42,020 nt of DNA from Patescibacteria group bacterium (GTDB lineage Bacteria > Patescibacteriota > Minisyncoccia > Minisyncoccales > CG1-02-41-26): NCBI GenBank assembly GCA_023474835.1, contig JAMCXQ010000026.1, positions 1-42,020 on the forward strand, given 5' to 3'. Under the pieces are notes generated by a model, which saw only the letters and a list, made by a program, of their open reading frames with translations, made no database searches and had not been told where the DNA came from. A program made the translations under genes and the position numbers. Below are positions 6,641-40,194 of this stretch, in pieces (position 1 is the first letter of the stretch; the number at the start of each line of letters is the position of its first letter).

Positions 6641-7963
6641 ATGGAAAGAACATTAATCGTTCAAACACCCAATTTTCTGGGCAAAGAAGTCCGCGTTAAA
6701 GGCTGGGTCAATTCCCGAAGAGACCACGGCGCCATTGTTTTTTTGGATTTAAGGGACGCAAGCGGGCTTTTGCAGGTGGTAGCTTCCTCTGAAATTGCCG
6801 AGGACATAACCGACGAATACGTGGTAGAAATAGAAGGACAAATTAAAGAACGGCCGCGCTCCATGGTCAATGCCGCTCTTTCTACCGGACAGGTGGAACT
6901 GGAAGCGAAAACGATAAAAGTTATAAGCAAAGCCGAAGTTCTGCCTTTTGATTTGAAAGAGATTGAAAAAGTAAGCCTGCCGGTTTTATTGGATTTTCGG
7001 CCCCTGAGCTTGCGGCACGAAAAAATAAAAGCGATTTTCAAAGTCGAAGAAGCCGTTATTGAAAGTTTCCGCGCCTTTCTCAAAAACAGGGGGTTCACGG
7101 AAATCCAGGTGCCCACCATTGTGCCAACTGCCACGGAAGGAGGATCGGAAGTTTTCAAAGTCGACTACTACGGCAAAAATGCTTTTTTGGCGCAAAGCCC
7201 GCAATTTTACAAACAAATAATGGCAGGGGTTTTTGAGAAAGTCTACACTTTGGCTCACCTTTACCGGGCCGAACCCAGCGTAACCACCAGACATATGTCC
7301 GAATTTCTGGGAATGGACGCTGAAATGGGCTTTATTGAATCCTGGGAAGAAATCATGGAAACAGCAGACGCTGTTATTAAAAACATTTTCAAAACGCTGG
7401 AACAAAAATGCCCTGCCCAATTGACTCTGCTTAACGCCACAATGCCGTTGGTAACGGACAAAACCCCCAGGTTGAAAATGCGTGAAGCCCAGGAAATCAT
7501 TTTTCAAAGAACCGGCCGCGACAACAGAGCCGAGCCCGACTTAAGCCCCCAAGACGAACGGGAAATTTGCCAGTGGGCAAAAGAAACCGGAAATTCGGAC
7601 ATTATTTTCATTACCCATTACCCGACGAAAAAAAGGCCTTTTTACACCCAGGAAGACCCGAACGACCCGGAGTACACTTTGAGTTTCGATGTTCTATGCC
7701 GCGGCCTGGAAATTGTAACAGGCGGGCAAAGAATCAACGATTACCAAAAACTATTGAACAATGTCAAAAAATGGGGCAATAAGCCCGAAAATTTTGATTT
7801 ATATCTTCAGGCATTCAAATACGGAATGCCGCCCGAGGGCGGGTTCTGTTTGGGAGCGGAAAGAATAGTCAAACAAATTTTAGGCCTGGAAAACCTCAGA
7901 GAAGCCAGCTTGTTCCCGCGGGATATGTCCAGAATTGATTTCCGGCTTTCCAGGGAGGAATAA
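6641..7963 (+). CDS. aspS: Aspartate--tRNA ligase, archaeal/type-2 form (possibly non-discriminating)
   Basis: 440 aa. Class II motifs (FRAEPSVTTRHMSEFLGMDAEM, GGQRINDY, YGMPPEGGFCLGAERIV). The length and layout match the short archaeal-type AspRS. Confidence 0.85.
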   Translation: MERTLIVQTPNFLGKEVRVKGWVNSRRDHGAIVFLDLRDASGLLQVVASSEIAEDITDEYVVEIEGQIKERPRSMVNAALSTGQVELEAKTIKVISKAEVLPFDLKEIEKVSLPVLLDFRPLSLRHEKIKAIFKVEEAVIESFRAFLKNRGFTEIQVPTIVPTATEGGSEVFKVDYYGKNAFLAQSPQFYKQIMAGVFEKVYTLAHLYRAEPSVTTRHMSEFLGMDAEMGFIESWEEIMETADAVIKNIFKTLEQKCPAQLTLLNATMPLVTDKTPRLKMREAQEIIFQRTGRDNRAEPDLSPQDEREICQWAKETGNSDIIFITHYPTKKRPFYTQEDPNDPEYTLSFDVLCRGLEIVTGGQRINDYQKLLNNVKKWGNKPENFDLYLQAFKYGMPPEGGFCLGAERIVKQILGLENLREASLFPRDMSRIDFRLSREE

Positions 7964-8940: not shown

Positions 8941-10020
8941 ATGATTCCTCATCCTTCAAGCGTTTTGGAAGCAAACGTCATAAAAGTTCTGATAATGTGC
9001 GCCCTTTCGGCTGTTTTGGCTTTTCTGTGGACGCCTTTCCTGACGAAGTTTTTATACAAACATAAACTTTGGCGCAAATCAGCGAGAGATAAAGCCATTG
9101 ACGGGGGAGCCGCCACGGTTTTCCACCAGCTGCATAAAGACAAAGAAACAGCCGCGCCCAGGTTCGGCGGGCTTTTAATCTGGATTACAAGCGCCTTTAT
9201 TATCTTCCTGTTCGCTTTCCTGGACAGCGTTTTCCCGTCGTCGTCCCTTTTCCACAAACTTAATTTTTTATCAAGAGAGCAAACCTGGCTGCCTTTGGGA
9301 TTTTTGATTGCCGGAGCCCTGCTTGGCCTGGGAGACGACATTTTGCAGGTTTTTGAAAAAGGAAAATACGCGGGCGGGGGCATCCGCTTCACCCGAAGGC
9401 TGGCTTTTGTTTTGCTGATTGGCGCCGCGGGCGCCTGGTGGTTTTATTTCAAGCTGGGCTGGCACACTTTGCACATACCGGGCAACGGCGATATTGAAAT
9501 CGGCCTTTTTTATCTGCCTCTTTTTGTTCTGACTGTTCTGGCCTGCTGGGCGGGCGGAGTCATTGACGGCCTGGACGGATTGTCGGGCGGGGTGTTTTCA
9601 GTGATGTTCGGGGCTTTCGGCATTATCGCTTTCGCGAACTCGCAATATAATCTGGCGACTTTTTGTTTTGTGGTGGCGGGCTCGACAATGGCTTTTTTGT
9701 GGTTTAACCTGCCTCCGGCCCGCTTTTACATGGGAGAAACCGGCACAATCGCCTTAACCGCCACGTTGGCGGCGGTTGCTTTTTTAACCGATTCTTTGCT
9801 GGTTTTGCCGATTATCGCCGGGCTTTTGGTGATTGAAGTTGCTTCAATTTTAATCCAGCTGGTCGCTAAAAAATTCTGGCACAAAAAAGTTTTTTTGTGC
9901 GCCCCGATTCACCACCATCTGGAAGCCAAGGGCTGGTCGCGGGAAAAAATCACGATGCGATTTTGGCTGATTGGCATGGTACTGGCAATTGTCGGAGTGG
10001 CGATACGGCTGCTTGGATAA
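8941..10020 (+). CDS. mraY: Phospho-N-acetylmuramoyl-pentapeptide transferase
   Basis: 359 aa polytopic membrane protein. Motifs DDILQ, DGLDGLSGG and APIHHHLEAKGWSREKI. Confidence 0.95.
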   Translation: MIPHPSSVLEANVIKVLIMCALSAVLAFLWTPFLTKFLYKHKLWRKSARDKAIDGGAATVFHQLHKDKETAAPRFGGLLIWITSAFIIFLFAFLDSVFPSSSLFHKLNFLSREQTWLPLGFLIAGALLGLGDDILQVFEKGKYAGGGIRFTRRLAFVLLIGAAGAWWFYFKLGWHTLHIPGNGDIEIGLFYLPLFVLTVLACWAGGVIDGLDGLSGGVFSVMFGAFGIIAFANSQYNLATFCFVVAGSTMAFLWFNLPPARFYMGETGTIALTATLAAVAFLTDSLLVLPIIAGLLVIEVASILIQLVAKKFWHKKVFLCAPIHHHLEAKGWSREKITMRFWLIGMVLAIVGVAIRLLG

Positions 10021-10044: not shown

Positions 10045-12570
10045 ATGCTGAAAGCACAATCTTTTGAATTTGTCTCGTATAGTTTTGTTCCGAAACAAAA
10101 GAAAGTCAGTTTTAAGTATAAAATAAGTTTTATCAAGGGAAAACCTTTGTTTTTTGTTGAAAATATTGTTTTGCCAAAAACGCCGGGCTTAAGCCGAGTT
10201 CCAAAGGACTTATTGGATAATCTTTTACAAGGATTGCATTTAATTTTAGGGGTAAGTTATTACAAAATTTATTGTCCGGCAAAAATAAAATTAAATAAGC
10301 CGCTTTCGCCAGAGCAGGCGGATTTTTGGGACAAGGTATATAAAAGGGGATTGGGGGAGTTTTTCTATCGTAATAAACTTAATCCAAAAATTGTAAAATT
10401 TCCATTCAAAAAAATACCGAAAGCGCAAAGCCATGAATTAAAAAGAAAAAACAGGTCTTTGCTGGGTATTGGAGGAGGCAAGGATTCAATTGTCGCCGCG
10501 GAGCTTCTCAAAAAAGGCAATTTCGAAGTCAATGGCTTTGCTGTTGAAACAGAAAAAGGATCCGAAGTGATTGATTCGGTTATCAAAAAAAGCGGACTTG
10601 GGGCGCTGAAAATCAGGCGCATTTTGGACCCAAAATTGTTCAGTAATCTTCCTAATTCATATAACGGCCACGTACCAATATCGGCCGTGTATGGATTTTT
10701 GGGGGTTTTTTGCGCGGTTTTATACGATTATTCAAATGTTATAGTTGCTAACGAACAAAGCAGCAATTTCGGCAACTTGGTTTATTATGGCGAAATAATT
10801 AACCACCAATGGAGCAAATCGCAGGAGTTTGAAGAGCTTTTCCAGAATTATGTCAATAATTTCATCACCCCGGACATAAAATATTTTTCTCTGCTTCGGC
10901 CCTTTTACGAAATCCGCATTGCGCGAATGTTTTCTGAACACAAAAAATACTTTCCTTATTTCTCAAGCTGCAATCAAAATTTCAGAGCGAACAGGCAAAG
11001 AGGGGGTCCGTTGTGGTGCGGGAAATGCCCTAAATGTGTTTTTGCGTTCACTCTTCTTTCCGCTTTCATTTCTAAAAAAGAGCTTCTGGGTGTTTTCAAA
11101 AAAAATCTTTACGAAGACGAGTCCTTACTGCGCCTATTTTCCGATTTGCTGGGATTCGGAAAAATGAAGCCTTTTGACTGTGTTGGCGCTTTTGAAGAAA
11201 CGCGGGCCGCCCTTTATCTGGCAAGAAACAAATTTAAAAATAGTTTCATAATCGCAAAACTGCTGTCGAAAATACAAAATCCCGATGATATAGCGAAAAA
11301 AGTGTTCTCCACTAACTTGGCGCTAAATATTCCCACCCGTTTTCGTTTTTTAGGTATGAAAAGCATTTTGATTTTGGGATTTGGCAAAGAGGGGCAAACA
11401 ACCCGACAATACTTGCAAAAAAATTTCCCCAAATGCAAAATTGGAATTGCCGACCAAAAACAAGACGGGAATTATCTGGAAAAACAGAAAAAATACGATA
11501 TTGTTGTCAAAACACCCGGAATCGCCAGAAAAAACATCGTGATTCAATACACCACTGCCTCCAACATCTTTTTGTCGCAAATTGACAACATGGTTATTGG
11601 CGTGAGCGGCAGCAAAGGCAAAAGTACTACGGCTTCCTTAATTTACGAAATTCTGAAAACGGCGGGCAAAAAAGTTTGTTTGCTGGGAAACATCGGCCAG
11701 CCAATGTTAAAGTCCCTTTTGGGGCCGATTGAAAAAAGCGAGATATTTGTTTTGGAACTTTCCAGCTATCAGCTTGACGATATTGAATTTTCGCCCAATG
11801 TAGCCGTAATAACGAATTTATTCCCCGAACATATGGATTATCATGGAGGAGTAAAACCGTATTTTGAAGCCAAACAAAACATCGTCAAATACCAAAGAAA
11901 AAATGATTTTTTCATTTATAACCCCAAAGTAGGGAAGTTGGGAAAATGGGCTAAGGAAACAAAAGCGAAAACAATTCCCTTTGAGAAAAAAATTCCGCTA
12001 AACCAAGCGGAGATACCTTTGCTTGGAGAACATAACAAAGATAACATCAAGGCGGCGGTGAGTGTGGCGAAAATTTTCAAAATCAAAAATGAAATCATCA
12101 AAAAAGCGATTGGAAATTTCAAGCCGCTGCCCCATCGTTTGGAGCTCGTTGGCGAATTTAGTGGAATTAAGTTTTATGATGACGCGATTTCAACCGCGCC
12201 CGAATCCACGATAATGGCCTTAAAATCAATCCCGAATATTAAAACGATTTTCCTTGGCGGAGAGGACCGCGGCTATGACTTTTTTGAACTTGAAAAAATC
12301 ATAAGAAAAAACAAAATAGAAAACATCGTTTTATTCCCGAAAAGCGGCAAAAGAATGTTCAAACAGAGAAGGGGATTGAATATTTTGGAAACATCCATAA
12401 TGAAAAAAGCCGTTGAGTTCGCTTACAAAAACACGCCGCAAGGAACGGCTTGCCTTCTTTCCACCGCCTCTCCAAGTTATACTATTTGGAAAAATTTTGA
12501 AGAAAAAGGCGACCAGTTCAAATATTGGGTTAAAAAATTTTCCAAAAAATATGGCGCTCGCGCAAAATAA
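10045..12570 (+). CDS. murD: Fusion protein: N-terminal PP-loop/4-Cys domain (aa 1-~435, candidate MurL-like) + UDP-N-acetylmuramoylalanine--glutamate ligase MurD (aa ~438-841)
   Basis: The C-terminal half has Mur ligase motifs (ILGFGKEGQ Rossmann, GVSGSKGKSTT P-loop, LGEHNKDN, PHRLE). The N-terminal half has GGGKDS (nt 10471-10488) and C309..C325-x2-C328-x2-C331. It is one uninterrupted frame, in the canonical murD slot between mraY and ftsW. Confidence 0.85.
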   Translation: MLKAQSFEFVSYSFVPKQKKVSFKYKISFIKGKPLFFVENIVLPKTPGLSRVPKDLLDNLLQGLHLILGVSYYKIYCPAKIKLNKPLSPEQADFWDKVYKRGLGEFFYRNKLNPKIVKFPFKKIPKAQSHELKRKNRSLLGIGGGKDSIVAAELLKKGNFEVNGFAVETEKGSEVIDSVIKKSGLGALKIRRILDPKLFSNLPNSYNGHVPISAVYGFLGVFCAVLYDYSNVIVANEQSSNFGNLVYYGEIINHQWSKSQEFEELFQNYVNNFITPDIKYFSLLRPFYEIRIARMFSEHKKYFPYFSSCNQNFRANRQRGGPLWCGKCPKCVFAFTLLSAFISKKELLGVFKKNLYEDESLLRLFSDLLGFGKMKPFDCVGAFEETRAALYLARNKFKNSFIIAKLLSKIQNPDDIAKKVFSTNLALNIPTRFRFLGMKSILILGFGKEGQTTRQYLQKNFPKCKIGIADQKQDGNYLEKQKKYDIVVKTPGIARKNIVIQYTTASNIFLSQIDNMVIGVSGSKGKSTTASLIYEILKTAGKKVCLLGNIGQPMLKSLLGPIEKSEIFVLELSSYQLDDIEFSPNVAVITNLFPEHMDYHGGVKPYFEAKQNIVKYQRKNDFFIYNPKVGKLGKWAKETKAKTIPFEKKIPLNQAEIPLLGEHNKDNIKAAVSVAKIFKIKNEIIKKAIGNFKPLPHRLELVGEFSGIKFYDDAISTAPESTIMALKSIPNIKTIFLGGEDRGYDFFELEKIIRKNKIENIVLFPKSGKRMFKQRRGLNILETSIMKKAVEFAYKNTPQGTACLLSTASPSYTIWKNFEEKGDQFKYWVKKFSKKYGARAK

Positions 12571-13687
12571 ACGGATAAAAGCAAAACCGGATTTGGTTTT
12601 ATTTCTAATTATCTTTGCCCTTGTTGTTTGGGGCTTTTTCACTATGTCGGCGGCTTCTTTTTCCGCGGCTTTGCTGGAAAACAGAAACCCCTGGTATTTT
12701 CTCACGCACCAGGGGGCGCTTTTGGCGGGCGGGATTGTTCTGGGCCTTGTCGCTTACAAAATACCGCTTGCCAAGCTGAAAAAAATGTCGCCGGTAATTT
12801 TTTTGGCTTGTTTGGCGCTTTTGCTGGCGGTGTTTTTGCCGGGAATCGGTGTGGAAAGCGGGGGAGCCCGGCGTTGGATGCGCGCAATCGGAGGATTTTC
12901 CTTGCAGCCCGCGGAATTTTTGAAAATCGGCTTTATCCTTTACCTGGCCGCCTGGCTGAACGAAAAATTCAAAAACAAAAAAGGCAAAATCTCCCTGAAA
13001 GACATTCTGCCATTTTTCGCGGTTTTGGCGGTTTTAACTTTTGCTTTAATCAAACAGCCCAACATGAGCACGCTGGCCATTGTTTATTTGACAGGCTTTG
13101 CCATGTATCTTTTGACCTCGGCCCCCTGGTGGCATTTTGTCGGGCTCGTTGGCGCGGGAGGCGGGGCGATAGCGGTTTTCATTTCTTCGGCTCATTACCG
13201 GATAAACAGATTTTTAACCTTTTTAAACCCGAACTCCGACCCCCTCAACAAAGGCTACCAGCTGAAACAGGCAGCTATCGCCATTGGTTCGGGCAAACTG
13301 GTGGGGGTCGGAGGCGGATTAAACTTCGGCTTGAGCCGCCAGAAGCTTGGTTTTCTGCCCGAAGTTCTCACTGATTCCATTTTCGCCGTGGTGGCTGAAG
13401 AAATGGGTTTTTTGGGATGTATAGCCTTAATCTGCCTTTTTATGGCTTTCGCCTGGCGCTGCCTGCGCCTGGCCGCCAGATGCGGTAAAACATTTGAAGG
13501 CTTTTTGGCCTGTGGCATCGCCGTTTGGATAACCCTGCAGGCGCTGTTTAACATGGCGGGCATTACCGGATCTCTGCCTTTGGGCGGCATTCCTTTGCCG
13601 TTTTTCAGCTATGGAGGCTCGCACATCATCGCGGAAATGATTGGCGTAGGGCTGTTATTGAACATATCAAAACATAATAATTCATGA
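12551..13687 (+). CDS. ftsW: SEDS-family peptidoglycan glycosyltransferase FtsW
   Basis: Start moved to ATG 12551 (MALAQNKRIK...), which overlaps the murD stop by 20 nt. Polytopic, with the GGARRWM...SLQPAEFLK and PFFSYGGS motifs. The ORF-track start at 12413 lies inside murD. Confidence 0.9.
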   Translation: MALAQNKRIKAKPDLVLFLIIFALVVWGFFTMSAASFSAALLENRNPWYFLTHQGALLAGGIVLGLVAYKIPLAKLKKMSPVIFLACLALLLAVFLPGIGVESGGARRWMRAIGGFSLQPAEFLKIGFILYLAAWLNEKFKNKKGKISLKDILPFFAVLAVLTFALIKQPNMSTLAIVYLTGFAMYLLTSAPWWHFVGLVGAGGGAIAVFISSAHYRINRFLTFLNPNSDPLNKGYQLKQAAIAIGSGKLVGVGGGLNFGLSRQKLGFLPEVLTDSIFAVVAEEMGFLGCIALICLFMAFAWRCLRLAARCGKTFEGFLACGIAVWITLQALFNMAGITGSLPLGGIPLPFFSYGGSHIIAEMIGVGLLLNISKHNNS

Positions 13688-14796
13688 AATTAGTTTTTGC
13701 GGGCGGAGGAACCGCCGGACACATATTCCCAATAGTGGCAATAACGCAGGAAATGAGACGGCTTTATCCCAGCTCCGAACTGAAAATATACTATTTAGGC
13801 CCCGGATACGACTACGGCGATGTTTTGCTGTCCCGTGAAAAAGTCGCGATAAAGCACATAGTATCGGGAAAATTGAGAAGATACTTTTCCTGGCGCAATG
13901 TGTCGGATGTTTTCAAGGTGCCAGTAGGGTTTTTGCAGGCGTTTTGCAAGCTTTTTGTTGTTTCACCCGACGTTGTTTTTTCCAGCGGAGGATTTGGCGC
14001 TTTTCCCGTTATTCTCGGCGCCTTTATCCTTAGAATTCCAATAGTTATGCATGAGCCGGACACTGTCGCGGGCCTGGTTTCCAGAATAACCGCTAAATTT
14101 GCCGCTCAGATTTTCAGCGCTTTCCCTGACGTTGAAAAACTGCCCAAAGAAAAAACCATTTGCGTGGGCAACCCCATCAGACCCGGGCTTTCGGGCGGTT
14201 CGCCCGAAAAAGCGAAAGAAATTTTCAGCCTGCAGAACGGCCGCCCGATAGTTTTGATTTTGGGCGGATCGCAAGGGTCGCAAAGCATCAATAATTTGAT
14301 ATTGGAAATTTTGCCCCAGCTTACAAATTCCCTTGAAGTTATCCACCAAACCGGCTTCAGCAACGAACAAGAAACAGCAAAACAGGCGAACTTTACGCTT
14401 GATAAAGAACAAAAAAAGTTTTATCATTGCTATGGGTTTTTGAATTCCGAACAATTGAAACACGCCTTCGCCGCGTGCAACCTGATAATTTCCAGGGCCG
14501 GTTCGGGCGCTTTGTTTGAAATTGCCTCGGCCGGAAAACCCTCGATTCTGATACCCCTGCAAAAAAGCGCGCAAAACCACCAGGCGAAAAACTCCTATTG
14601 GTTCCAGGCGAAGGGGGCCTGCGAAGTCGTTGAAGAGCAAAACTTAAAACCAAACATATTTTTGCAAAGGTTGTTTAATTTGATAAACAGCGAAAAAGCG
14701 CTGGCGAAAATGGCTGAAAACGCCGCGGGCCTGGCCAAACCGCAAGCCGCAGCCATTATTGCCAAATACTTGATTGACTGCCTGAAAAATGGATGA
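13684..14796 (+). CDS. murG: UDP-GlcNAc--lipid I N-acetylglucosamine transferase
   Basis: 370 aa. FAGGGTAGHIFP, GGSQGSQ and ISRAGSGALFEI motifs. ATGA start/stop overlap with ftsW. Confidence 0.95.
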   Translation: MKLVFAGGGTAGHIFPIVAITQEMRRLYPSSELKIYYLGPGYDYGDVLLSREKVAIKHIVSGKLRRYFSWRNVSDVFKVPVGFLQAFCKLFVVSPDVVFSSGGFGAFPVILGAFILRIPIVMHEPDTVAGLVSRITAKFAAQIFSAFPDVEKLPKEKTICVGNPIRPGLSGGSPEKAKEIFSLQNGRPIVLILGGSQGSQSINNLILEILPQLTNSLEVIHQTGFSNEQETAKQANFTLDKEQKKFYHCYGFLNSEQLKHAFAACNLIISRAGSGALFEIASAGKPSILIPLQKSAQNHQAKNSYWFQAKGACEVVEEQNLKPNIFLQRLFNLINSEKALAKMAENAAGLAKPQAAAIIAKYLIDCLKNG

Positions 14797-16859: not shown

Positions 16860-17810
16860 ATGCAAAAGCCAAAAATACAGCTTCCCAGCTTGGATGATTT
16901 TCTGCTTAATTTGCAGACAAATAATCTATCGCAAGAGACCGTTTATAACTATGAAAGGGACCTGGATGTTTTCCAGGATTTTTTGAACGAAAATAGTGTT
17001 GAATTTGCAAACATCGGGAAAAAAACGCTTTTATTTTATAAAGCGTACCTGAACTCGCACGACAGAAAAACGCCCCTCCACAAAACCGGAAAAAACAAAC
17101 TAAGCAGCTTTTCAACCAATAGAATGTTGTCGGCTTTAAGGTCTTATCTGAAATTTTTGGTTGATGCGGATATCGCAACTCCCATAACCCCTGAAATGGT
17201 AAAATTGACAAAAAATGAAAAAAAACAATATAAAATATCCGAGCTGCTGGAAATAATAAAAATAGTCGAGGCCCCGATGGATTTTGAAAAAAATCAAAAA
17301 GTGGCTTTGCGAAACCGGGCTATGTTTGAAATGCTTTTTTCAACCGGAATGCGCATCTCCGAGCTAATCGGCCTCAAGCAGAACCAGATTGATAAAACAG
17401 GCCGCATTCTTATCAAAGGCAAGGGTAAAAAGGAAAGATTTGTTTATTTGACTCCGAGGGCCGAAAAACACCTGAAAAGCTATCTTGATATCAGAGGAAT
17501 TGTTGACACTCCTTTTCTTTTCATTCCCTATCATGGCAAAAATATCCGCAAAGAAAACAAGAGAATTTCCGCAAATTATATGCAGGAAAGAATAAAAAAA
17601 TACCGCGAATGGCTGGGCATAAATATTCCGATTTCCTGCCACAGCATCCGCCATGCATTTGCCACTTATTTGGCTGAAAACGGAGCCAGCCCGGCGGCTA
17701 TTCAAGTACTGTTGGGACACGAATCATTGAACACGACAACAAGATACATTAACGCTTCAAACAAGTTTGCCGAAGAAACCCACAGGAAATTTCACCCTTT
17801 GAAAAATTAG
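16860..17810 (+). CDS. Tyrosine recombinase, XerC/XerD family
   Basis: 316 aa. N-terminal SAM-like core-binding domain. Catalytic region includes ..R..(GMRISELIGL), HSIRHAFATYL and LLGHESLNTTTRY. Confidence 0.85.
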   Translation: MQKPKIQLPSLDDFLLNLQTNNLSQETVYNYERDLDVFQDFLNENSVEFANIGKKTLLFYKAYLNSHDRKTPLHKTGKNKLSSFSTNRMLSALRSYLKFLVDADIATPITPEMVKLTKNEKKQYKISELLEIIKIVEAPMDFEKNQKVALRNRAMFEMLFSTGMRISELIGLKQNQIDKTGRILIKGKGKKERFVYLTPRAEKHLKSYLDIRGIVDTPFLFIPYHGKNIRKENKRISANYMQERIKKYREWLGINIPISCHSIRHAFATYLAENGASPAAIQVLLGHESLNTTTRYINASNKFAEETHRKFHPLKN

Positions 17811-21407: not shown

Positions 21408-21478
21408 CGGGCTGTAGTATAATGGTAGTATTTGCCCTTGGGGTGGGTAAGATTCCGGTTCAATTCCGGGCAGCCCGA
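21408..21478 (+). tRNA. tRNA-Pro (anticodon GGG)
   Basis: Hand-folded cloverleaf. Acceptor stem CGGGCTG/CAGCCCG is 7 bp perfect. Anticodon stem TGCCC/GGGTA with loop TT-GGG-GT (G37). T-arm TCCGG-TTCAATT-CCGGG. Discriminator A. CCA is not encoded. Confidence 0.85.
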
Positions 21479-21900: not shown

Positions 21901-24159
21901 TTACTGCTGCCCGCCGGTTGAGGTGCCCAAAACATCCTTGAAGTTTTCGGCCCATTGCGCGTTAAAAGCAACTGCCTGGCGGGCGACTTCGCCCGCTTCG
22001 GCAATATCCCCTGCTTTTTGGGCGAAGCTAACGGCAAAAGTGTAAAAACTGAGCTGGTCCGGGTACTTGGTAATTCTCGCTATGGCGGCTTCTTCGCCCT
22101 GTTTGGCGATTTGCCTGGCTGTTTCCTGCTGGCCGGTTAAATCGGCGATTCTCTGGGCAATATCGTAGGATTGCAGCCAGGCCGGCTCCAGGACAATAGC
22201 CTGCTGGGCCAGCTGCAAAGCCTCGTCGTATTTACCCTCATAAATTCTGTTTTGAGCCAAAGCCCACAAAGCCATCTGATTTTTCGGCGACAAACCCAGG
22301 GCCGTTCGCAAAACCGTTTCGGCCTGGTCTTTTTTGGAATAATCAAGCAAAGTATAAACATTGTATGCCTGGCCCAGTTTGAGCCACGACCTGAAATCCA
22401 AGGGCGACTCCTTAACGCTTTTTCCCAGCTCGCCGGCAATAAAGCCGATTTCACTTTGCGCCGCTTTTTTCATTGCCTCGTCTTTCTGCCAGTCGCCTGC
22501 CCTGTCCTGCACCAGTTTGGTGATGTTTTCGGAAAAGAAATCCCTGATTTGATATTTCCCCAAAGGAGAATCGGCTAAAGTTTTTTTGTAAAATTCCATC
22601 CGGGTGGCCGTATCCTGCCCGACAATGGCCGAAATGACAAAGTGGTCGGACATCGCCGGCTTGACGACGAACTCGGCCAGACAAACGGCAAAAGCAGCCA
22701 GCGCCACGAGAGCGAACCACTGATTTTTTAATTTGCCTGTTTTTTGCGCGACCGGCTGGTTTTTATCCGTGGCCAGGAAACCGCCAAACCCCAGCGCCAG
22801 GCCGAACATCATCAGGCTTACGGGCATGTCAAAAACAGTCAGGTTCTGCAGGAAATAGGCGACGGGCAAAATAATGAAAACAACAAAAGTCCAAAAATCA
22901 ATGGTTTTTTCTTTCAGGTATTTTCGCGAAACAATGTAAAAGAGCGCGGCGAAAATTCCAAAATACGCCAAAGAGCCCAGCACGCCCATTGTCGCTAAAT
23001 TGTCAAAAACAATGTTGTGGGTCCGGTCAAACCAAACTTCGCTGCCACACTCCAAGGTAAAAAGGCAGGGGTTGAAAAATCTGGGGAAAAGAACGTCGTA
23101 TGTTTCCGGGCCCCAGCCCAAGGCAGGCCTTTCCATAAATCCTGACCAGGCGATTTGCCAGTTGACAAACCTTGAACGGCTTGTCAAATCAATGAACTTA
23201 TTGTGCACGAAACTGCCCGGAGTGAAAAGCAAAACCAAACCGCACAGAGCTGCCGCCAGCGACAGGCAAAGCAGAACCCGGCCGACGATTTTCAGCGATT
23301 TCCTGCGGGGCATAAAGCTCAGCCAAAAAAGGGCGCTCAAAGCCAGGCCGCCTATCAAGCATACGGTGGCGGCCCGCGCCCCGGCGAAATGGACGACTAA
23401 CAGAAAATAAACAACCAAAGCAGCGGCAATGATTTTCGCGGTTTTGTTTTTTGCCTGCCAAAAAACGTAAAAAGCCAAAAACCCGCTGAACAAAAGATAG
23501 GTGCCCAAAAAAGAAGTATTGCCCACGGTGGCGCTGCCGTTTGCCGCCATACCCAGATTTTTAACGCCGGCCAGCTCCAAAGTCGCCAGAAAAGCCGTGA
23601 TAACCGACCAGCCAAGCGAAACAACGAAAATTTTCCGCCAGTCTTTCCAGGTTTTGAAAGTGTTGGAAATCGCCAGAAAAAACCCGAAAATATGCAGCCA
23701 CATTAAAAGCCCGGTCATTCTTTCAAATTTTGACCAAAAAGACCTGGAGGGGTCAACGCCGAAAACCGAGCTCAGGGTCATTGCCAGAATAAAAAAAGCG
23801 AAAGCGATTAAAAGATAATTGAGCTTGGGCCGGTACTGCTTGGAAAGAACGGCCAAAACCAGCCAGCTGAAAAACACCAGTTCGCAAAAACCCATTAAAT
23901 AAAGGCTTTTTAAGCCGACAAAAGGAAAGAAAAATTTACTTTGCAAAACAAGCGGGCTGGCCAGGGCCAGATACACCCCGATTGTTGCCAGAAAAAGCAA
24001 AACTTTTTCCAGCCCCGATTGCGCAGGGCGGCCGGAAACGATAACGTCCGGCTTCAAGCCGGGGCTTTCCCGTTTTATCTTTTTTTCTCTTGATTTTTTG
24101 CCCATAGGTTTTTTGTTGTATATGTTTTGCATTATACTATTAATATGGATTTTTGCCAA
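21901..24159 (-). CDS. O-antigen ligase/polymerase-like (Wzy_C family) membrane protein with C-terminal TPR-like repeats
   Basis: 752 aa. About 12 TM segments followed by a soluble tail with TPR-like helices (YDEALQLAQQAIVLEPAW..., AEAGEVARQAVAFNAQW). The exact start codon is uncertain because there are several in-frame Met residues. Confidence 0.75.
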   Translation of the reverse strand: MAKIHINSIMQNIYNKKPMGKKSREKKIKRESPGLKPDVIVSGRPAQSGLEKVLLFLATIGVYLALASPLVLQSKFFFPFVGLKSLYLMGFCELVFFSWLVLAVLSKQYRPKLNYLLIAFAFFILAMTLSSVFGVDPSRSFWSKFERMTGLLMWLHIFGFFLAISNTFKTWKDWRKIFVVSLGWSVITAFLATLELAGVKNLGMAANGSATVGNTSFLGTYLLFSGFLAFYVFWQAKNKTAKIIAAALVVYFLLVVHFAGARAATVCLIGGLALSALFWLSFMPRRKSLKIVGRVLLCLSLAAALCGLVLLFTPGSFVHNKFIDLTSRSRFVNWQIAWSGFMERPALGWGPETYDVLFPRFFNPCLFTLECGSEVWFDRTHNIVFDNLATMGVLGSLAYFGIFAALFYIVSRKYLKEKTIDFWTFVVFIILPVAYFLQNLTVFDMPVSLMMFGLALGFGGFLATDKNQPVAQKTGKLKNQWFALVALAAFAVCLAEFVVKPAMSDHFVISAIVGQDTATRMEFYKKTLADSPLGKYQIRDFFSENITKLVQDRAGDWQKDEAMKKAAQSEIGFIAGELGKSVKESPLDFRSWLKLGQAYNVYTLLDYSKKDQAETVLRTALGLSPKNQMALWALAQNRIYEGKYDEALQLAQQAIVLEPAWLQSYDIAQRIADLTGQQETARQIAKQGEEAAIARITKYPDQLSFYTFAVSFAQKAGDIAEAGEVARQAVAFNAQWAENFKDVLGTSTGGQQ

Positions 24160-24191
24160 GCTTTATTATACAATAAATTGAGGCAATTTAT

Positions 24192-25502
24192 ATGAAAAAA
24201 CTAAGGCAGCTTATTCTGTTCCTGGGCGACCTGATAATGGCCGCTGGCGCGCTTTTGGCCACGGTTTACCTTGGCTTTTGGAACAACTTTTCCTGGCGCG
24301 TTTTTAACCAGCACATTCTGCCATTTTCAATCCTCTATGCCGTGTGGCTGGCGATTTTTTATGTTTTCGGGCTTTATGATTTAAGCGTCCTGAAGCCGAA
24401 AACCGACCTTTTGTCAAAAATCGGCCAGGGCTTTGCCGTTTGTTTTTTAATTGGCCTGGCTTTTTTCTATCTCATACCCATATTCGGCATAACGCCCAAA
24501 ACCAATTTATTGATTGACATTTTGGTTTTCGCCGGCCTGGTGCTTTTGTGGCGCCGCGCCTTCTACGGCCTTTTTTCAACCGTTTATCTGCGCAACATCG
24601 GCTTTTTGGGCAAAACGGCCCTTTCCGAAAATTTATACCAGACAATAAAAAACAACCCCCAGCTGGGCTACAAACTGGCCGGCTATCTGGAAAAAACCGA
24701 AAATATAATCCACCAGATAAAACAAAACAAAATCCAGGTTTTGGTTTTATCCCAAGACATTTCCAAAAATCCGAAAATCGTTCAGGGACTTTACCAGTGT
24801 CTGCCCCTGCGAATTGACATTTTAGATCTGGCCCGGGCTTACGAAGCGATACTGCAAAAAATCCCGATTGATTTCGTCAACCAGACCTGGTTTCTGCAAA
24901 ATCTTTCCGAGGGGGAAAAAATATCTTACGACAAAACCAAAAGAATAATTGACGTTTTTTTGGCAGGGCTGCTTTTAGCAATAACTTCGCCTTTTTGGTT
25001 TTTTATATTTTTGGCAATCAAACTTGACGACAAAGGCGCGATTTTTTACAAACAGCAAAGAATCGGCAAAGACAACAGGGTTTTTTGGATTTGGAAATTC
25101 AGGTCAATGAAACCGGATGCGGAAAAAACGGGCGCGAAGTGGGCCGAGAAAAACGACCCGCGCATAACAAAAGCGGGCAAAATCTTGCGGAGATTGCATT
25201 TTGACGAATTTCCGCAAATGCTCAACGTGCTCAAAGGCGACATTTCCCTGGTAGGGCCCCGGCCGGAGCGGCCGGAGTTTGTGCGCCAGCTGACAAAGCA
25301 AATCCCCCACTACCACTTAAGAAACCTTATCAAACCGGGCTTTACCGGCTGGGCGCAGGTCAAATACATCCATTACGCCAGAAACGAGCAGGAAAGCCAC
25401 GAAAAATTCCAGTATGACCTGTATTACATAAAAAACAGATCCTTTTTTCTGGACCTGGGCATTTTGCTAAAAACATTTCAGTTATTTTTCACCAAAGGAT
25501 AA
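24192..25502 (+). CDS. Polyprenyl-phosphate glycosyl-1-phosphate transferase (WbaP/large PGT type, initiating enzyme)
   Basis: 436 aa. N-terminal TM bundle. The C-terminal bacterial sugar transferase domain has RIGKDNRVFWIWKFRSM and DEFPQMLNVLKGDISLVGPRPERPEF. GAGG lies 8 nt upstream of the ATG. Confidence 0.9.
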   Translation: MKKLRQLILFLGDLIMAAGALLATVYLGFWNNFSWRVFNQHILPFSILYAVWLAIFYVFGLYDLSVLKPKTDLLSKIGQGFAVCFLIGLAFFYLIPIFGITPKTNLLIDILVFAGLVLLWRRAFYGLFSTVYLRNIGFLGKTALSENLYQTIKNNPQLGYKLAGYLEKTENIIHQIKQNKIQVLVLSQDISKNPKIVQGLYQCLPLRIDILDLARAYEAILQKIPIDFVNQTWFLQNLSEGEKISYDKTKRIIDVFLAGLLLAITSPFWFFIFLAIKLDDKGAIFYKQQRIGKDNRVFWIWKFRSMKPDAEKTGAKWAEKNDPRITKAGKILRRLHFDEFPQMLNVLKGDISLVGPRPERPEFVRQLTKQIPHYHLRNLIKPGFTGWAQVKYIHYARNEQESHEKFQYDLYYIKNRSFFLDLGILLKTFQLFFTKG

Positions 25503-26165
25503 TTCTTCAAATGCCTCTTTTTTCCGCAAAATCAGGATGCGCAAGTTTTCTCTTCTTTTAATTTCCCAAGAAAACAACAGCTCTGTTTCCATACCTTTTA
25601 GAATATCCTTATACTCGTCCTCCAGCCACCAGTCCATATTTACCCTCGCTTCCCCGCCCGGTCTCAAAACCCTCAGAATTTCCTTAACCATTTCTTGCAC
25701 CATAACTTTTCTTTCTGCGTTATCCGGATATTGATAATCCGCCCAATAAAAAGAAGAGAAGTTCGCCAGACAAAGGTCAAAGCTTTCATCCAAAAAAGGC
25801 AAGGCCTCGTTAATGGCGGCTGCTTTATTTTTTCTGGTTCTTCCTTTTTTGACGAAATCATCCCGAAAGCGAAGCACGCTGGTTCTTCCGGACACCTTTG
25901 TATCATCTTTTTCCTCCTCCTTGCCCAACATCTTTTCTGCGTCCTCTGTCAAGTACCTGTACATCGGGTCTATTGAGATAATTTTAGTGCCGGGCTTTCC
26001 CGCTTCTTGTTGAAACCTCGCCAGACCAGCCCCGATATCCAAAATATCCTTGTTTTCTAAATCTTCTTTGCGCAAACCTAAAAATCTTTTGTACAGCGCA
26101 ACCCCCCTGTCTATGGGGCAAACTGCTGATTTGTCATAGCTGAACTTCTTACTTTCTTGATTCAT
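25482..26165 (-). CDS. Class I SAM-dependent methyltransferase (with insertion)
   Basis: 227 aa. Motif I ILDIGAGLARF and post-II LRVLRPGGEARV. Confidence 0.6.
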   Translation of the reverse strand: MNQESKKFSYDKSAVCPIDRGVALYKRFLGLRKEDLENKDILDIGAGLARFQQEAGKPGTKIISIDPMYRYLTEDAEKMLGKEEEKDDTKVSGRTSVLRFRDDFVKKGRTRKNKAAAINEALPFLDESFDLCLANFSSFYWADYQYPDNAERKVMVQEMVKEILRVLRPGGEARVNMDWWLEDEYKDILKGMETELLFSWEIKRRENLRILILRKKEAFEELSFGEK

Positions 26166-27291
26166 AAATGTTTATTGTTTCTTTGACCATTTCTGACAAA
26201 GAGAACTCGCCCTGAGCCCTTTGTCTGTTTTTCCCGCCCATTTCCTGGCGCAAGCCGGGGTTTTTTATTAAGTTTGTCAAAGCGGCTACAAAAGCGCCGG
26301 CATCGTTGTTTTTAATTAAAAATCCGCAATCCCTGCCAACTGCCTCGGCAATGCCGCCAACGTCGCTGGCAACAATTGGCAGACCCGCGAACATCGCTTC
26401 CAAAATCGTTACGGGCAAACCCTCAAATTTTGAGATTAAGACGAAAATATCCAAACCAAACAGAATTTCCCTTGTTTTTTCCGGCGATTTTTCACCCAAA
26501 AGAAAAACACTGGTTGATAAATTATTCTTTTGAACAAAACTCTCGCAATCAGCCATCAGCGGCCCGTCGCCGATTAAAACAAATTTTGCCCGCAACAAAT
26601 CCCCTGTCATTTTTTGGGCAACCGACAAAAAAGCGAGCGGGTCTTTGGGATAAGCAAGCCGCGCCACCATGCCAACGGCAACGTCATCCTTGTTCAACCC
26701 AAGCTCTTGCCTAGTTTTTTCCCTTGCCAGTCCCCTGTCCCCTGCGGCAATTGGAAAATCAATGCCGTTTCTGACAACAATCATTTTGTTCGCCTTGGCT
26801 ATTTTGTTTTTCAAACCGTCGTCAAAAACCTTTTGCGAAACGCAAATTATCCTGGTGGTGATCTTGGCGGCGGACTTTTCCAAAAAAGTAAATAATTTCT
26901 GGCCCCAGCCGTATTCTTCCTGATTATAAAAACCCCAGGAATGAACCGTGTAAAATATTTTTTTGGTGCGGCTAAACTTCGCGGCCCATCTTCCTAAAAT
27001 TCCGGCTTTGGCGGAATGACAATGGACAATGTCGTATTTGCCTTTTTCAATGATTCCGAGCAAAGCGAAAAAAGCCGCCAAATCGCGCCAAGGCGAAATT
27101 TCTCTTTTGAGCGATTTGATTTCAAAAACGGCAATCCCCTGCTCTTTTAATTTTTCAACCAGCAGGCCGGCGGCCTGGCACGCAACGCCAACTTCAAAAC
27201 CGCTGTTTTTCAAGCCCAGCGCCAAATCATAAACAACCCTTTGCGCCCCGCCCCACTCCGATAAAGTGATAATCTGCAAAATTTTCGGCAT
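26149..27291 (-). CDS. Glycosyltransferase family 4 (GT-B)
   Basis: Start moved to ATG 27291 (MPKILQIITLSEWGGAQRVV...). The C-terminal E-x7-E-type region is SKFEGLPVTILEAMFAGLPIVASDVGG. The 100-codon upstream extension in the ORF track has no protein-like character. Confidence 0.85.
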   Translation of the reverse strand: MPKILQIITLSEWGGAQRVVYDLALGLKNSGFEVGVACQAAGLLVEKLKEQGIAVFEIKSLKREISPWRDLAAFFALLGIIEKGKYDIVHCHSAKAGILGRWAAKFSRTKKIFYTVHSWGFYNQEEYGWGQKLFTFLEKSAAKITTRIICVSQKVFDDGLKNKIAKANKMIVVRNGIDFPIAAGDRGLAREKTRQELGLNKDDVAVGMVARLAYPKDPLAFLSVAQKMTGDLLRAKFVLIGDGPLMADCESFVQKNNLSTSVFLLGEKSPEKTREILFGLDIFVLISKFEGLPVTILEAMFAGLPIVASDVGGIAEAVGRDCGFLIKNNDAGAFVAALTNLIKNPGLRQEMGGKNRQRAQGEFSLSEMVKETINIYESRK

Positions 27292-27293
27292 AA

Positions 27294-27322
27294 TTGATAT
27301 TTCATTCAAATTAACATAGAAT
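27294..27322 (+). promoter_or_regulatory. Sigma70-like promoter for flippase gene 27330
   Basis: TTGATA (27294-27299), a 17-nt spacer, then TAGAAT (27317-27322). The -10 ends 7 nt before the ATG, which predicts a leaderless transcript. Confidence 0.45.
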
Positions 27323-27329
27323 ACAACCA

Positions 27330-28568
27330 ATGAAAAGGCGTTTTGACAAATTGCTGGATTGGTTTGGCAAAAAAACCAAAATGGACGTTGCCTATTTGGC
27401 CAAAGCCAGCTTGTGGAGTTTTTTGGGCGACGGAGCGGCAACCATTGCCAGCATTCTGCTTTCCGTGGCTTTTGCCAACCTGATGAGCAAAGAAACTTTC
27501 GGTTTGTACCGCTACGTGCTTTCGGTGGCGGGCATTTTGACTTTTCCCACTTTGGTTGGCATAAATATGAGCATGGTGCAGTCCGTGGCACGGGGCTTTG
27601 AGGGCTCTTTTTTTGACGGGTTGAAAACCAAAATCAAATGGGGCAGTTTTGCCGCGCTTTTTTGCGCCGTAATCGCCGTTTATTACATAACTAAAGCCAA
27701 CCATACCCTGGCCGTTGCTTTCATCATTGCCGGGTGCTTTTTGCCTTTTATGGATTCGGTTTTGCTTTACCAGTCAATCTGGGCGGGCAGAAAAAACTTC
27801 AAAACGCAGAATATTTTCCAGGTTATAGCGCAGGTAATAGCCGTGGCCGTTGTTTTTTTGGTTTTGCTTTTCACCCGCAACATTCTTTTGGTTATTCTGG
27901 CCTATTTCGCCGCCTACACTTTTTCCAGGACGCTGCTGCTTTTTATCACCGTTAAAAAAGCGAAAATCAACAGACAAAAAGACGAGAAAACCATTTCTTT
28001 CGGCAAACATTTAAGCTTGATGCAGGTGCCGGGCATAATAGCCAACCAAACGGACAAAGTTTTGCTTTGGAGTTTTTTGGGGCCCTCGGCCCTGGCCGTT
28101 TATTCTTTCGCCATTTTGCTGCCCGACAACATCCGGACCGTTTTCCGCGATTTGGAAACCGTTATTTTGCCTAAATTCAGCCAAAAACAAAAACAGGAAC
28201 TGCAAAAAGGCCTGCCCAGAAAAATACTGGTTGTTTTGCCGGTTTTAATCTTGGCGGTTGTCGTTTATGTTTTAATAACCCCCTGGATTTTCAAAATATT
28301 TTTTCCCAGGTATCTTGACGCAGTGAAATATTCTCAAATTTATTCTTTGTGCATTATATTTTTCACTTTGCAAGTGCCTTTTACCACCGCCCTCACCTCG
28401 CAGCTTGAAAAAAGAAAACTATATTTTTTCAGGTTTTTCGCTCCCCTTTTGCAAATAGCCCTTTTGGCAGTATTCACGCCTCTCTACGGAATTATGGGCG
28501 CGATAGCAGCGATAATTTCCTCGCAAATTATCGGGCTTTTGGTTTTGATATTTCTTTTCAAAAAATAA
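27330..28568 (+). CDS. Wzx-like oligosaccharide flippase (MOP/polysaccharide biosynthesis protein family), copy 1
   Basis: 412 aa with about 12 TM segments. Clear paralogue of 29398-30648 (shared FGLYRYVLS, LKTKIKWG, LFLTRNI.LVILAYF, FGKHLSL). Confidence 0.8.
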   Translation: MKRRFDKLLDWFGKKTKMDVAYLAKASLWSFLGDGAATIASILLSVAFANLMSKETFGLYRYVLSVAGILTFPTLVGINMSMVQSVARGFEGSFFDGLKTKIKWGSFAALFCAVIAVYYITKANHTLAVAFIIAGCFLPFMDSVLLYQSIWAGRKNFKTQNIFQVIAQVIAVAVVFLVLLFTRNILLVILAYFAAYTFSRTLLLFITVKKAKINRQKDEKTISFGKHLSLMQVPGIIANQTDKVLLWSFLGPSALAVYSFAILLPDNIRTVFRDLETVILPKFSQKQKQELQKGLPRKILVVLPVLILAVVVYVLITPWIFKIFFPRYLDAVKYSQIYSLCIIFFTLQVPFTTALTSQLEKRKLYFFRFFAPLLQIALLAVFTPLYGIMGAIAAIISSQIIGLLVLIFLFKK

Positions 28569-28576
28569 CACCTACC

Positions 28577-29386
28577 TTATTTTATTTTCTGCTTTATTTT
28601 TTGGGGCACTAACAGCCAAGCTGCCCGCGCCAAAATGTGAAACATCCCCCGTATTTTCGGATACCCGTACTTTGCAATGGCGTACCAGCGGGCTTTTAAG
28701 GCATATTTTTGCTGGGAATTGCCGGAAAAAGAAATTGAGTTTGGCGACATCCGCCATTGCAAAAGTTTTTCCGCCAGGTTGGCCACCGGATATTTGGCGG
28801 CCAAGCGCAAGACCAATTCGTAGTCCTGGGCTTTTTTGAATTTTTCATCGTAAAAACCCTCTTTGTCCAAAACCGATTTTAGCATAAACAAAGACGAATG
28901 GATAAATTGATTGTTGAAAAGCAATCCTTTTTTAATGTTTTGATAATCCAAAGCCAGATTTTTCTCTCCGATTATTTTGCCCCCGCTGTCAATGACAAAA
29001 GCCAAAGAGCCACAAAGGACCGTTTCGGGATTTTTTAGCATAAAGTCAAACTGCTTTTCAAGCCGTTCGGGCCGGGCAATGTCATCGTCGTCCATACGGG
29101 CGATAAATTTGCCCGAGGCCAGGCAAAGAGCTTTGTTGAGCGACCTGGTCAGGCCCAAATTTTTTCCATTGTTGATAATTTTAATCCGTTCGTCTTTTTT
29201 TTGGAAAGCTTGCAAAATTTCCGTGGTTCGGTCGGTTGAACAGTCATTGACAATCAAAAACTCAAAGTCGGCCAATGTCTGGCTTAAAATGCTGTTAATG
29301 GCTTCTTTTATGTGTTCTTGGCCGTTATGGCTTGCCATTATAACTGAAACCAAAGGATTGTGGTTTTGCTGGTTTTGCGATAACAT
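28577..29386 (-). CDS. Glycosyltransferase family 2
   Basis: 269 aa. VSVIMASHNGQEHI...LIVNDCSTDRT and ARMDDDD (DxD). Confidence 0.9.
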   Translation of the reverse strand: MLSQNQQNHNPLVSVIMASHNGQEHIKEAINSILSQTLADFEFLIVNDCSTDRTTEILQAFQKKDERIKIINNGKNLGLTRSLNKALCLASGKFIARMDDDDIARPERLEKQFDFMLKNPETVLCGSLAFVIDSGGKIIGEKNLALDYQNIKKGLLFNNQFIHSSLFMLKSVLDKEGFYDEKFKKAQDYELVLRLAAKYPVANLAEKLLQWRMSPNSISFSGNSQQKYALKARWYAIAKYGYPKIRGMFHILARAAWLLVPQKIKQKIK

Positions 29387-29397
29387 ATAAATATGAT

Positions 29398-32460: not shown

Positions 32461-32463
32461 ATG

Positions 32464-32919
32464 TCAAATAACCAAATAATATTTCCCCCAGACGCCGTCC
32501 TGACCCTTTAACGCAAACCCCAGTTTTTCAAACAGTTTCTGCGAAGCGATGTTTTCCTGGTGGATTTCAGCCAGTAATGTCTTCATTCCCGCTTTCTTGG
32601 TTTGTTTTATCAGCAACTTCAAAGCTGCTTTGCCGACTCCCCTGCCCTGAAATTCTTTTAAGATTGCGATGCTAACTACTGCCTGCTGATTTTCTTTTGC
32701 ATCAAACCGAACCTGACCAATCGGAGTTTTGTTTTGGCAAACAACAAAAAGGCGCTTTTCATTCAAACCCAGAATAATGGGCATAATCCAGCTGACATGC
32801 TCTTGCCATTCAATAACTCTGTTTGTCTGAAAAAACCTGAAAACCTCGGGCTGGCTGTTTCGCAAGTGCCACAAAAATTCAATGTCGCTGAAATCAGCTT
32901 TTTTTAATTTTATTTTCAT
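32464..32919 (-). CDS. pseH: GNAT N-acetyltransferase, PseH-like
   Basis: Start moved to ATG 32919 (MKIKLKKADFSDIEFLWHLRN...). 151 aa. Acetyl-CoA motif QGRGVGKAAL. The size and N-terminal W.LRN pattern match PseH. Confidence 0.65.
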   Translation of the reverse strand: MKIKLKKADFSDIEFLWHLRNSQPEVFRFFQTNRVIEWQEHVSWIMPIILGLNEKRLFVVCQNKTPIGQVRFDAKENQQAVVSIAILKEFQGRGVGKAALKLLIKQTKKAGMKTLLAEIHQENIASQKLFEKLGFALKGQDGVWGKYYLVI

Positions 32920-32940
32920 AAACCGGCTTTTTTTGGGCGA

Positions 32941-33063: not shown

Positions 33064-33074
33064 GAGCCCCCTGA

Positions 33075-34400: not shown

Positions 34401-34404
34401 AGTA

Positions 34405-35762: not shown

Positions 35763-35781
35763 AAATTAAAATTTTCAATTT

Positions 35782-37909: not shown

Positions 37910-37921
37910 AAAATTTGTAAA

Positions 37922-40184: not shown

Positions 40185-40194
40185 AATTTTATAA

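Follow-up and report, generated by a model that had tools for sequence, protein, structure and literature searches.

A predicted single-chain MurL-MurD2 enzyme in the murD position of a Patescibacteria cell-wall gene cluster

A single gene on a 42,020-nucleotide (nt) contig of a Patescibacteria group bacterium (GTDB lineage Bacteria; Patescibacteriota; Minisyncoccia; Minisyncoccales; CG1-02-41-26; GenBank assembly GCA_023474835.1, contig JAMCXQ010000026.1, positions 1 to 42,020 of the forward strand), referred to below in its whole length as the window, joins an N-terminal MurL-type epimerase domain to a C-terminal MurD-type ligase domain. It is very probable that this one polypeptide carries out the two steps by which the alternative MurD2/MurL route provides the D-glutamate (D-Glu) of the peptidoglycan precursor. 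The C-terminal MurD2-type domain would attach L-glutamate (L-Glu), and not D-Glu, to UDP-N-acetylmuramoyl-L-alanine (UDP-MurNAc-L-Ala) using ATP, and the MurL domain would invert the terminal residue. Support for this predicted activity comes from homology, domain order, specificity residues, the modelled fold and the conservation of the fusion.

A conserved fusion of murL and murD2

According to the list of open reading frames (ORFs), a single ATG-started ORF at 10045..12570 (+) encodes 841 amino acids (aa) and carries both domains in one frame. It sits between mraY and ftsW/murG of a division and cell wall (dcw)-like cluster, the murD slot in which an earlier note on this DNA had placed it. 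The positions given there for the GGGKDS motif (nt 10471-10488, aa 143-148) and for the cysteine cluster (C309, C325, C328 and C331, in the pattern C-x15-CGKCPKC) were exact. Related loci were gathered by a scan of one genome per GTDB species, which gave 122 confirmed relatives, of which 80 were kept. The features of the gene are as follows.

10045..12570 (+): predicted bifunctional MurL-MurD2 protein (ORF list; at least 119 fusion clusters; open frame in 63/80 genomes; AlphaFold2 (AF2) model)
10045..11355 (+): MurL domain (NF041275; Pfam MurL_N and MurL_epimerase_C; AF2)
10471..10488 (+): PP-loop motif GGGKDS, aa 143-148, predicted ATP pyrophosphatase site (near-invariance; strand-loop-helix in the model)
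10969..11037 (+): four-Cys cluster C309-x15-C325-x2-C328-x2-C331, predicted metal site (invariant in 107 sequences; QueC as top structural match)
11167..11187 (+): KPFxCVG motif with Cys379, candidate acid/base residue for epimerisation (conservation; putative catalytic role)
11356..11358 (+): junction, Met438 (alignment with the start of unfused MurD2)
11356..12570 (+): MurD-type ligase (MurD2) domain (TIGR01087; Mur_ligase_M; PDB MurD matches)
11827..11829 (+): Glu595, equivalent to E. coli MurD Asp182 and Xanthomonas oryzae MurD2 Glu197, predicted specificity switch (MAFFT alignment)
12187..12189 (+): Ile715, in place of E. coli MurD Lys319 (MAFFT alignment)
12268..12270 (+): Arg742, equivalent to E. 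coli Lys348 and MurD2 Arg358, predicted specificity switch (MAFFT alignment)
12472..12480 (+): Pro810 and Tyr812, equivalent to E. coli Ala414/Leu416 and MurD2 Pro433/Phe435 (MAFFT alignment)

The two domains meet without a linker, the junction reading ...RFRFLG|MKSILILGFGKEG, i.e. ...RFRFLG-M438-KSILILGFGKEG. Met438 aligns with the start of MurD2 in unfused relatives, and on this alignment it is the presumptive retained start codon of an ancestral, separate murD2 gene. Where the genes are unfused, the end of murL runs 14-26 nt into murD2, and the fusion may have originated when the stop was lost at such an overlapping junction. The AF2 model of the full-length protein has a predicted local distance difference test score (pLDDT) of 92.3 and a predicted template modelling score (pTM) of 0.88, with a pLDDT of 93-97 across the junction and no disordered linker, and it argues for a compact two-enzyme body.

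A word-indexed protein search returned at least 119 other clusters of 813-883 aa with 55-74% identity and 97-100% coverage. One uninterrupted frame runs through both domains in 63 of the 80 related Patescibacteria genomes, while in the other 17 murL and murD are separate neighbours, always in the order murL then murD; murL followed by murD2 is also the order in Xanthomonadales and Sericytochromatia. By record title, the fused forms belong to Staskawicz-, Moran-, Uhr-, Nomura- and Peregrinibacteria and to Paceibacterota, and the unfused forms to Taylor-, Colwell-, Sungii- and Gottesmanbacteria, Microgenomates and Peribacteria. The earlier note had raised the concern that a frameshift might lie behind the in-frame fusion. 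The genes are indeed separate and overlapping in 17 of the 80 relatives and in cultured bacteria, and one indel would fuse them. However, the equal open frame recurs in 63 independently assembled genomes, the protein clusters found by the search come from different projects, and the junction residues F433, G437 and G445 are conserved. An assembly or frameshift artefact joining two adjacent genes has next to no probability; the fusion is real and conserved.

Two proteins might nevertheless be made in practice, if translation also began at Met438 and released a free MurD2, in which case the fusion would be of little functional meaning. The alignment of Met438 with the unfused MurD2 start is what such internal initiation would predict, but no Shine-Dalgarno-like sequence is found at a useful distance before the ATG at 11356, the fused frame is kept in 63 genomes, and the junction is compact and ordered in the model. 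Moreover, full-length product would remain despite internal initiation. We consider this explanation quite improbable.

Identity and glutamate specificity of the two halves

Residues 4-415 match the NCBIfam model NF041275 (MurL), named 'UDP-N-acetyl-alpha-D-muramoyl-L-alanyl-L-glutamate epimerase' in that database, with an E-value of 4e-104 and 348.6 bits over profile positions 7-417 of 447. Precomputed Pfam assignments for the window protein and its listed homologues give PF26299 and PF26298, named MurL_N and MurL_epimerase_C; a Pfam scan of aa 1-437 had no match in an older Pfam copy that does not hold the MurL models. The homology to MurL that the earlier note had advanced as a hypothesis is thus borne out by a nearly full-length profile match. 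Across 150 family representatives (50% identity clusters), conservation is complete or at least 90% at G143-S148, C309, C325, C328, C331 and C379, and the PP-loop and Cys residues are invariant also in an alignment of 107 sequences that includes Xanthomonadales MurL. The same degree of conservation is seen at K375, P376, F377, C379, V380 and G381 in both alignments, and His254, Lys258, Asn310 and Lys330 vary little or not at all in the 150 representatives and in the alignment with Xanthomonadales MurL.

The earlier note had named an unrelated PP-loop family, such as a tRNA-modifying enzyme, as the finding that would overturn its proposal. The N-terminal domain would then be an enzyme of the QueC, TtuA or MnmA type, acting on tRNA or in queuosine synthesis and fused to MurD by chance, and both the motif and the Cys cluster do resemble QueC and TtuA. 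However, the next NCBIfam families after MurL, the tRNA thiolases MnmA and TtuA, reach an E-value of only ~0.01 over ~35 residues around the PP-loop, against the full-length MurL match, and the structural overlap with QueC is limited to a core of ~200 residues (template modelling (TM) score normalised to the query 0.31). We regard this explanation as refuted, and its residual probability as vanishingly small.

The assignment of the C-terminal half (residues ~438-841 in the earlier note) to the MurD family stood up equally well. Residues 441-830 match TIGR01087 (murD) with 257 bits (cut-off 212), Pfam Mur_ligase_M matches with an E-value of 1e-25, and solved MurD structures in the PDB match down to an E-value of 4e-56. 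The catalytic residues (E. coli K115, N138, E157, H183 and K198) are kept in the window protein and in 119/119 homologues. With regard to substrate choice, X. oryzae MurD2 is known to differ from E. coli MurD near the glutamate site by D182 to E197, K348 to R358, A414 to P433 and L416 to F435; the MurD2 double mutant E197D/R358K becomes a D-Glu ligase, and E. coli MurD K319T gains use of L-Glu (PMC8788868). We compared these residues by MAFFT alignment, with the E. coli numbering checked on PDB alignments. The references were four MurL-adjacent ligases: two of Xanthomonadales (Arenimonas and Pseudolysobacter), one of an unfused Parcubacterium and one of a Sericytochromatia genome. Five MurDs from the PDB made up the canonical set.

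E. coli D182 position: window E595; four references E; five PDB MurDs D, T, D, D, D
E. coli K319 position: window I715; four references I; five PDB MurDs all K
E. coli K348 position: window R742; four references R; five PDB MurDs K, R, E, K, K
E. coli A414 position: window P810; four references P; five PDB MurDs all A
E. coli L416 position: window Y812; four references Y or F; five PDB MurDs L, W, F, F, L

The window protein has MurD2-type residues at all published specificity positions and none of the D-Glu type, in line with the MurD2 half of the earlier proposal. The same pattern is found in 63/63 fused and 16/16 unfused Patescibacteria loci, with position 319 as the sole exception (Ile in 60/63 fused). 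Among the fusion homologues, Arg at the 742 position and Pro at the 810 position are each present in 119/119. By this comparison the discriminating positions are Glu182, the loss of Lys319 and Pro414, and the assignment of the ligase half to the L-Glu (MurD2) type is supported by the aligned residues. A placement of E. coli Lys348 in the NDSK motif, where the window protein has Ile and would contradict a MurD2 type, was rejected: Lys348 belongs to the GGDGK loop (R742), and the Lys of NDSK is Lys319 (I715).

The ligase half could instead be an ordinary D-Glu-adding MurD, with a racemase elsewhere in the genome and a MurL-like half that corrects mis-incorporated L-Glu or acts on another carboxylate. 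Several observations lean in this direction and count against the MurD2/MurL assignment. The ligase domain scores above the NCBI equivalog cut-off for murD (TIGR01087), and overall similarity does not set it apart from canonical MurD: its identity is 35% with S. agalactiae MurD, 35% with the MurD2s from Sericytochromatia and Parcubacteria, and only 27% with those from Xanthomonadales. Some canonical MurDs, too, carry Arg at position 348, and some an aromatic residue at 416. Because overall similarity fails to separate MurD2 from MurD, the MurD2 call rests on the five positions and on gene association. For the other half, the MurL score of 348.6 bits falls short of the 700 that NF041275, set on Xanthomonadales, has as its equivalog cut-off. 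This threshold delimits a narrow clade, not the family as a whole, because the model is named for Xanthomonadales and the proteobacterial-type homologue P0233 is also below it, with just 571 bits. Public records, too, use the name 'D-glutamate ligase', and an active MurI is reported for some Patescibacteria (Saccharimonas) in a reference cited in PMC11974145.

On the other side, all five specificity positions are of the MurD2 type, and apart from position 319 they do not vary in 79/79 MurL-linked ligases. The pair of exchanges E197D/R358K converts MurD2 to the use of D-Glu (PMC8788868), and the window protein has the E and R states. Furthermore, the strict pairing of murL with a MurD2-type ligase across four phylum-level groups argues for a common pathway. 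An ordinary MurD in the ligase half is, on this balance, unlikely, and the two-step MurD2/MurL assignment is preferred. Among the ORFs of at least 150 aa in the 42-kb window, none is an Asp_Glu_race, murI-like or class-IV aminotransferase gene, and a tblastn search with E. coli MurI had no hits in the 1.38 Mb of the window and 87 related loci, which are small parts of the genomes. Since Saccharimonas is reported to have an active MurI, the MurD2/MurL route would seem not to be universal in Patescibacteria.

Fold and proposed chemistry of the MurL half

The AF2 model of the MurL domain, built on 107 diverse sequences, has a pLDDT of 96.6 and a pTM of 0.94. Its top Foldseek match in the PDB is QueC (3bl5; E-value 9e-5, probability 1.0, TM to target 0.61), in agreement with the 'QueC-like PP-loop' remark of the earlier note. 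Further Foldseek matches are the QueC-like Cap9 (TM to target 0.67), the [4Fe-4S] tRNA thiolase TtuA, argininosuccinate synthase, MnmA and NAD synthetase. No MurL structure was among the matches of Foldseek against the PDB or of phmmer against PDB sequences; phmmer of the MurL domain against the latter gave nothing meaningful, the similarity to QueC being undetectable by that method. In the model GGGKDS has the classic PP-loop position, flanked by the first strand (135-141) and the first helix (146-157) of the core, and a family profile aligns this region to the PP-loop of TtuA with an E-value of 7e-4; the PP-loop enzyme MnmA is also matched there. The first residue of the motif is Gly in the window protein versus Ser in the canonical SGGxDS. 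The matched PP-loop ATP pyrophosphatases adenylate a substrate oxygen, and in QueC the C...CxxCxxC cluster is a zinc site. The model thus supports placing the MurL core with the PP-loop ATP pyrophosphatases, in a QueC-like fold, and by analogy the four-Cys cluster is predicted to be a QueC-like metal site, probably for Zn.

Characterised MurL requires ATP and Mg2+, forms AMP and converts L to D in one direction only, and an alpha-carboxyl adenylate has been proposed; in reviews MurL is said to have no recognised conserved domain and its mechanism is called unclear (PMC5808125, PMC8788868). The PP-loop assignment fits this published ATP-to-AMP chemistry and would supply the missing fold. A structural zinc is easier to reconcile with these reviews than an iron-sulfur cluster would be, as they name a requirement for ATP and Mg2+ only. 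With QueC and the other PP-loop enzymes (TtuA, MnmA, argininosuccinate synthase and NAD synthetase) the modelled MurL has in common an alpha/beta core with an SGGxDS-type loop after the first strand, with QueC also a C...CxxCxxC cluster like its zinc site, and the predicted common reaction adenylates a substrate oxygen and releases pyrophosphate. However, MurL adds an N-terminal domain of ~130 residues and a C-terminal helical region. The fate of the adenylate would differ as well: in MurL inversion of a stereocentre is followed by hydrolysis, whereas in the PP-loop relatives ammonia or sulfur attacks.

A mechanism can be proposed on this basis. The N-terminal MurL domain, with its QueC-like PP-loop and predicted Cys4 metal site, would adenylate the alpha-carboxylate of the terminal L-Glu with a second ATP; adenylation would make the alpha-proton acidic, and an enzyme base, for which Cys379, His254 and Lys258 are candidates, would invert the centre. 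Fusion would set the two activities at 1:1, and the L-Glu intermediate may be handed directly from site to site. The L-Glu ligase activity, the need for ATP and Mg2+, the formation of AMP and the one-way direction are carried over by analogy from characterised MurD2 and MurL, while we infer the identity of the metal and of the base, channelling and the dispensability of a glutamate racemase. The fold and the short list of invariant residues offer testable mechanistic hypotheses and candidate catalytic residues, and the natural single-chain form would lend itself well to work on structure and channelling and to complementing D-Glu auxotrophs with a single gene.

Genomic setting, distribution and comparison with known systems

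The fusion gene takes the murD position of a small dcw-type cluster, with the following neighbours.

8941..10020 (+): mraY (TIGR00445, E-value 5e-44), ending upstream of the fusion gene with a 24-nt gap
12551..13687 (+): ftsW (TIGR02614), likely ATG at 12551, with a 20-nt overlap with the end of the fusion gene
13684..14796 (+): murG (TIGR01133)

In 33 of 67 evaluable related loci ftsW lies directly 3' of murL-murD2, and the two closest relatives (loci L087 and L088) keep an order of eight genes: aspS, S11 peptidase, mraY, the fusion, ftsW, murG, gltX and a xerC-like gene. The fusion gene is a sharp low-GC island, having a GC content of 0.38 and a GC content at third codon positions (GC3) of 0.42 versus 0.50 and 0.575 for mraY and ftsW. 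It also encodes the most conserved protein of the block, with 67-69% identity to L087 and L088 compared with 42-58% for ftsW, murG and gltX and 58-69% for mraY. A recent horizontal transfer of the fusion into this genome was considered and rejected, as both syntenic relatives share an equal GC dip over the fusion and the identical gene order. The dip may go back to a base composition peculiar to the gene, or to an older lateral spread through homologous replacement.

Other genes in the window were noted in passing. The XerC/XerD-type tyrosine recombinase downstream of gltX is conserved in position (window 16860-17810, L087 16661-17611, L088 17030-17992), has a GC content of 0.39 and shows 67-69% identity among the three syntenic loci. 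The non-discriminating-type aspS (window 6641-7963) is only 30-32% identical to its syntenic counterparts (L087 6494-7864, L088 6439-7839), far below the neighbouring genes, and may have been replaced by a different aminoacyl-tRNA synthetase lineage. A tRNA-Pro(GGG) at 21408-21478 (+) is the sole Rfam/ARAGORN match in the window. From 21901 to 41819, mostly on the minus strand, there is a large surface-polysaccharide or nonulosonic-acid-type gene cluster. It includes a Wzy_C-like protein of 752 aa, Bac_transf (24192-25502), GT4, GT2, two Polysacc_synt flippases, NeuB (31402-32460), GNAT, a class-III aminotransferase, a CMP-sugar cytidylyltransferase (34998-35762), a GFO/IDH/MocA oxidoreductase, a DegT aminotransferase (36773-37909), a PseB/CapD-like dehydratase (37922-38890) and several methyltransferases. 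One methyltransferase gene within it (34405-35001, minus strand) has a GC content of 0.34 and a GC3 of 0.29 and was possibly acquired separately.

An exhaustive HMMER search with the MurL domain returned 2,553 representatives (50% clusters) at an E-value of 1e-3 or below, 1,179 of them at 1e-30 or below. The best 150 of the 2,553 are mostly stand-alone proteins of ~450 aa, with ~22 MurL-MurD fusions and two MurD-MurL fusions. Named homologues include Gammaproteobacteria, Thiotrichales, Sericytochromatia and Parcubacteria. The published hosts of MurL are only genera of Xanthomonadales, three of Alphaproteobacteria and four of actinomycetes (PMC5808125, PMC8788868), and the MurD2/MurL route has been held to be limited to relatively few genera and promoted as a narrow-spectrum drug target (PMC8788868). 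MurL is much more widely spread than this literature states and is common in Patescibacteria, and with 2,553 clusters the target is not a narrow one. A literature search covering few subscription journals found no report of MurL/MurD2 in Patescibacteria, of the fusion or of a PP-loop assignment. Relative to the literature that could be searched, the fused form and its wide spread in Patescibacteria are new, whereas the pathway itself has been known since 2017, and public domain databases already tag pieces of the fusion protein.

In the public records the ~840-aa fusions are named 'D-glutamate ligase' and many stand-alone MurLs 'endonuclease domain-containing protein'. Because of such mis-annotation, metabolic reconstructions of ultra-small bacteria will mis-score the supply of D-Glu. 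The useful outcomes are a corrected annotation, a wider pathway distribution, a proposed fold for MurL and a fused protein for experiments. A more far-reaching proposal combines three parts: that peptidoglycan D-Glu comes mainly or solely from MurD2/MurL in much of the Patescibacteria and in other uncultured lineages, e.g. Sericytochromatia, that the fused enzyme channels the L-Glu intermediate, and that MurL is a QueC-like zinc PP-loop enzyme acting by acyl-adenylate inversion with Cys379 as the base. Taken jointly these parts are put forward tentatively, their combined chance falling somewhat short of even.

Reverse-order MurD-MurL fusions also exist. In P0256 (878 aa) and P0269 (883 aa) the same two domains as in the window protein are joined with MurL at the C-terminus, and their ligase has Asp at the E. 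coli-182 position, where the window protein has Glu. Because the domain order is opposite, these represent a second, independent fusion event. Among unfused loci, the Parcubacterium locus L003 (8696-10243) encodes a MurB homologue (FAD_binding_4 and MurB_C) fused to a DUF559 endonuclease-like domain.

The closest known system is the pair MurL (XOO_1319) and MurD2 (XOO_1320) of Xanthomonas oryzae (Feng et al. 2017, reviewed in PMC5808125 and PMC8788868). It comprises the same two enzyme families in the same order, with murL upstream. X. oryzae MurD2 and the window ligase are identical at the E, R and P positions, while Tyr812 replaces Phe435 in the window, and the PP-loop and Cys residues of Xanthomonadales MurL are as in the window protein, judged from the Arenimonas and Pseudolysobacter orthologues. 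However, X. oryzae has two proteins where the window has one polypeptide without a linker, and identity between the window protein and its Xanthomonadales counterparts is just 27-38%. The hosts are different as well, the window belonging to Patescibacteria (Candidate Phyla Radiation, CPR) and the published hosts being Xanthomonadales, few Alphaproteobacteria and rare actinomycetes. Whereas the window gene occupies the murD slot between mraY and ftsW, the Xanthomonadales pair adjoins a lysC/lysA fusion. This gene, directly upstream of murL-murD2 in the Xanthomonadales loci L001 (2384-5008) and L002 (2333-4945), encodes a fusion of ~870 aa with aspartokinase (AA_kinase) and diaminopimelate-decarboxylase-type domains, from a pathway linked to peptidoglycan and lysine.

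Other Mur ligase fusions are described in NCBIfam, namely MurC/Ddl (NF011171), MurE/MurF (NF008896) and MurF/alanine racemase (NF008897). Like the window protein, they join a Mur ligase to an enzyme of an adjacent step or to a supplier of a D-amino acid. However, their partners are other ones, and in them a free D-amino acid is produced before ligation, whereas in the window protein the L-amino acid would be ligated first and inverted on the nucleotide precursor. The single-chain MurL-MurD2 is best described as an architectural variant in a new phylum-level host group, and not as a new kind of system.

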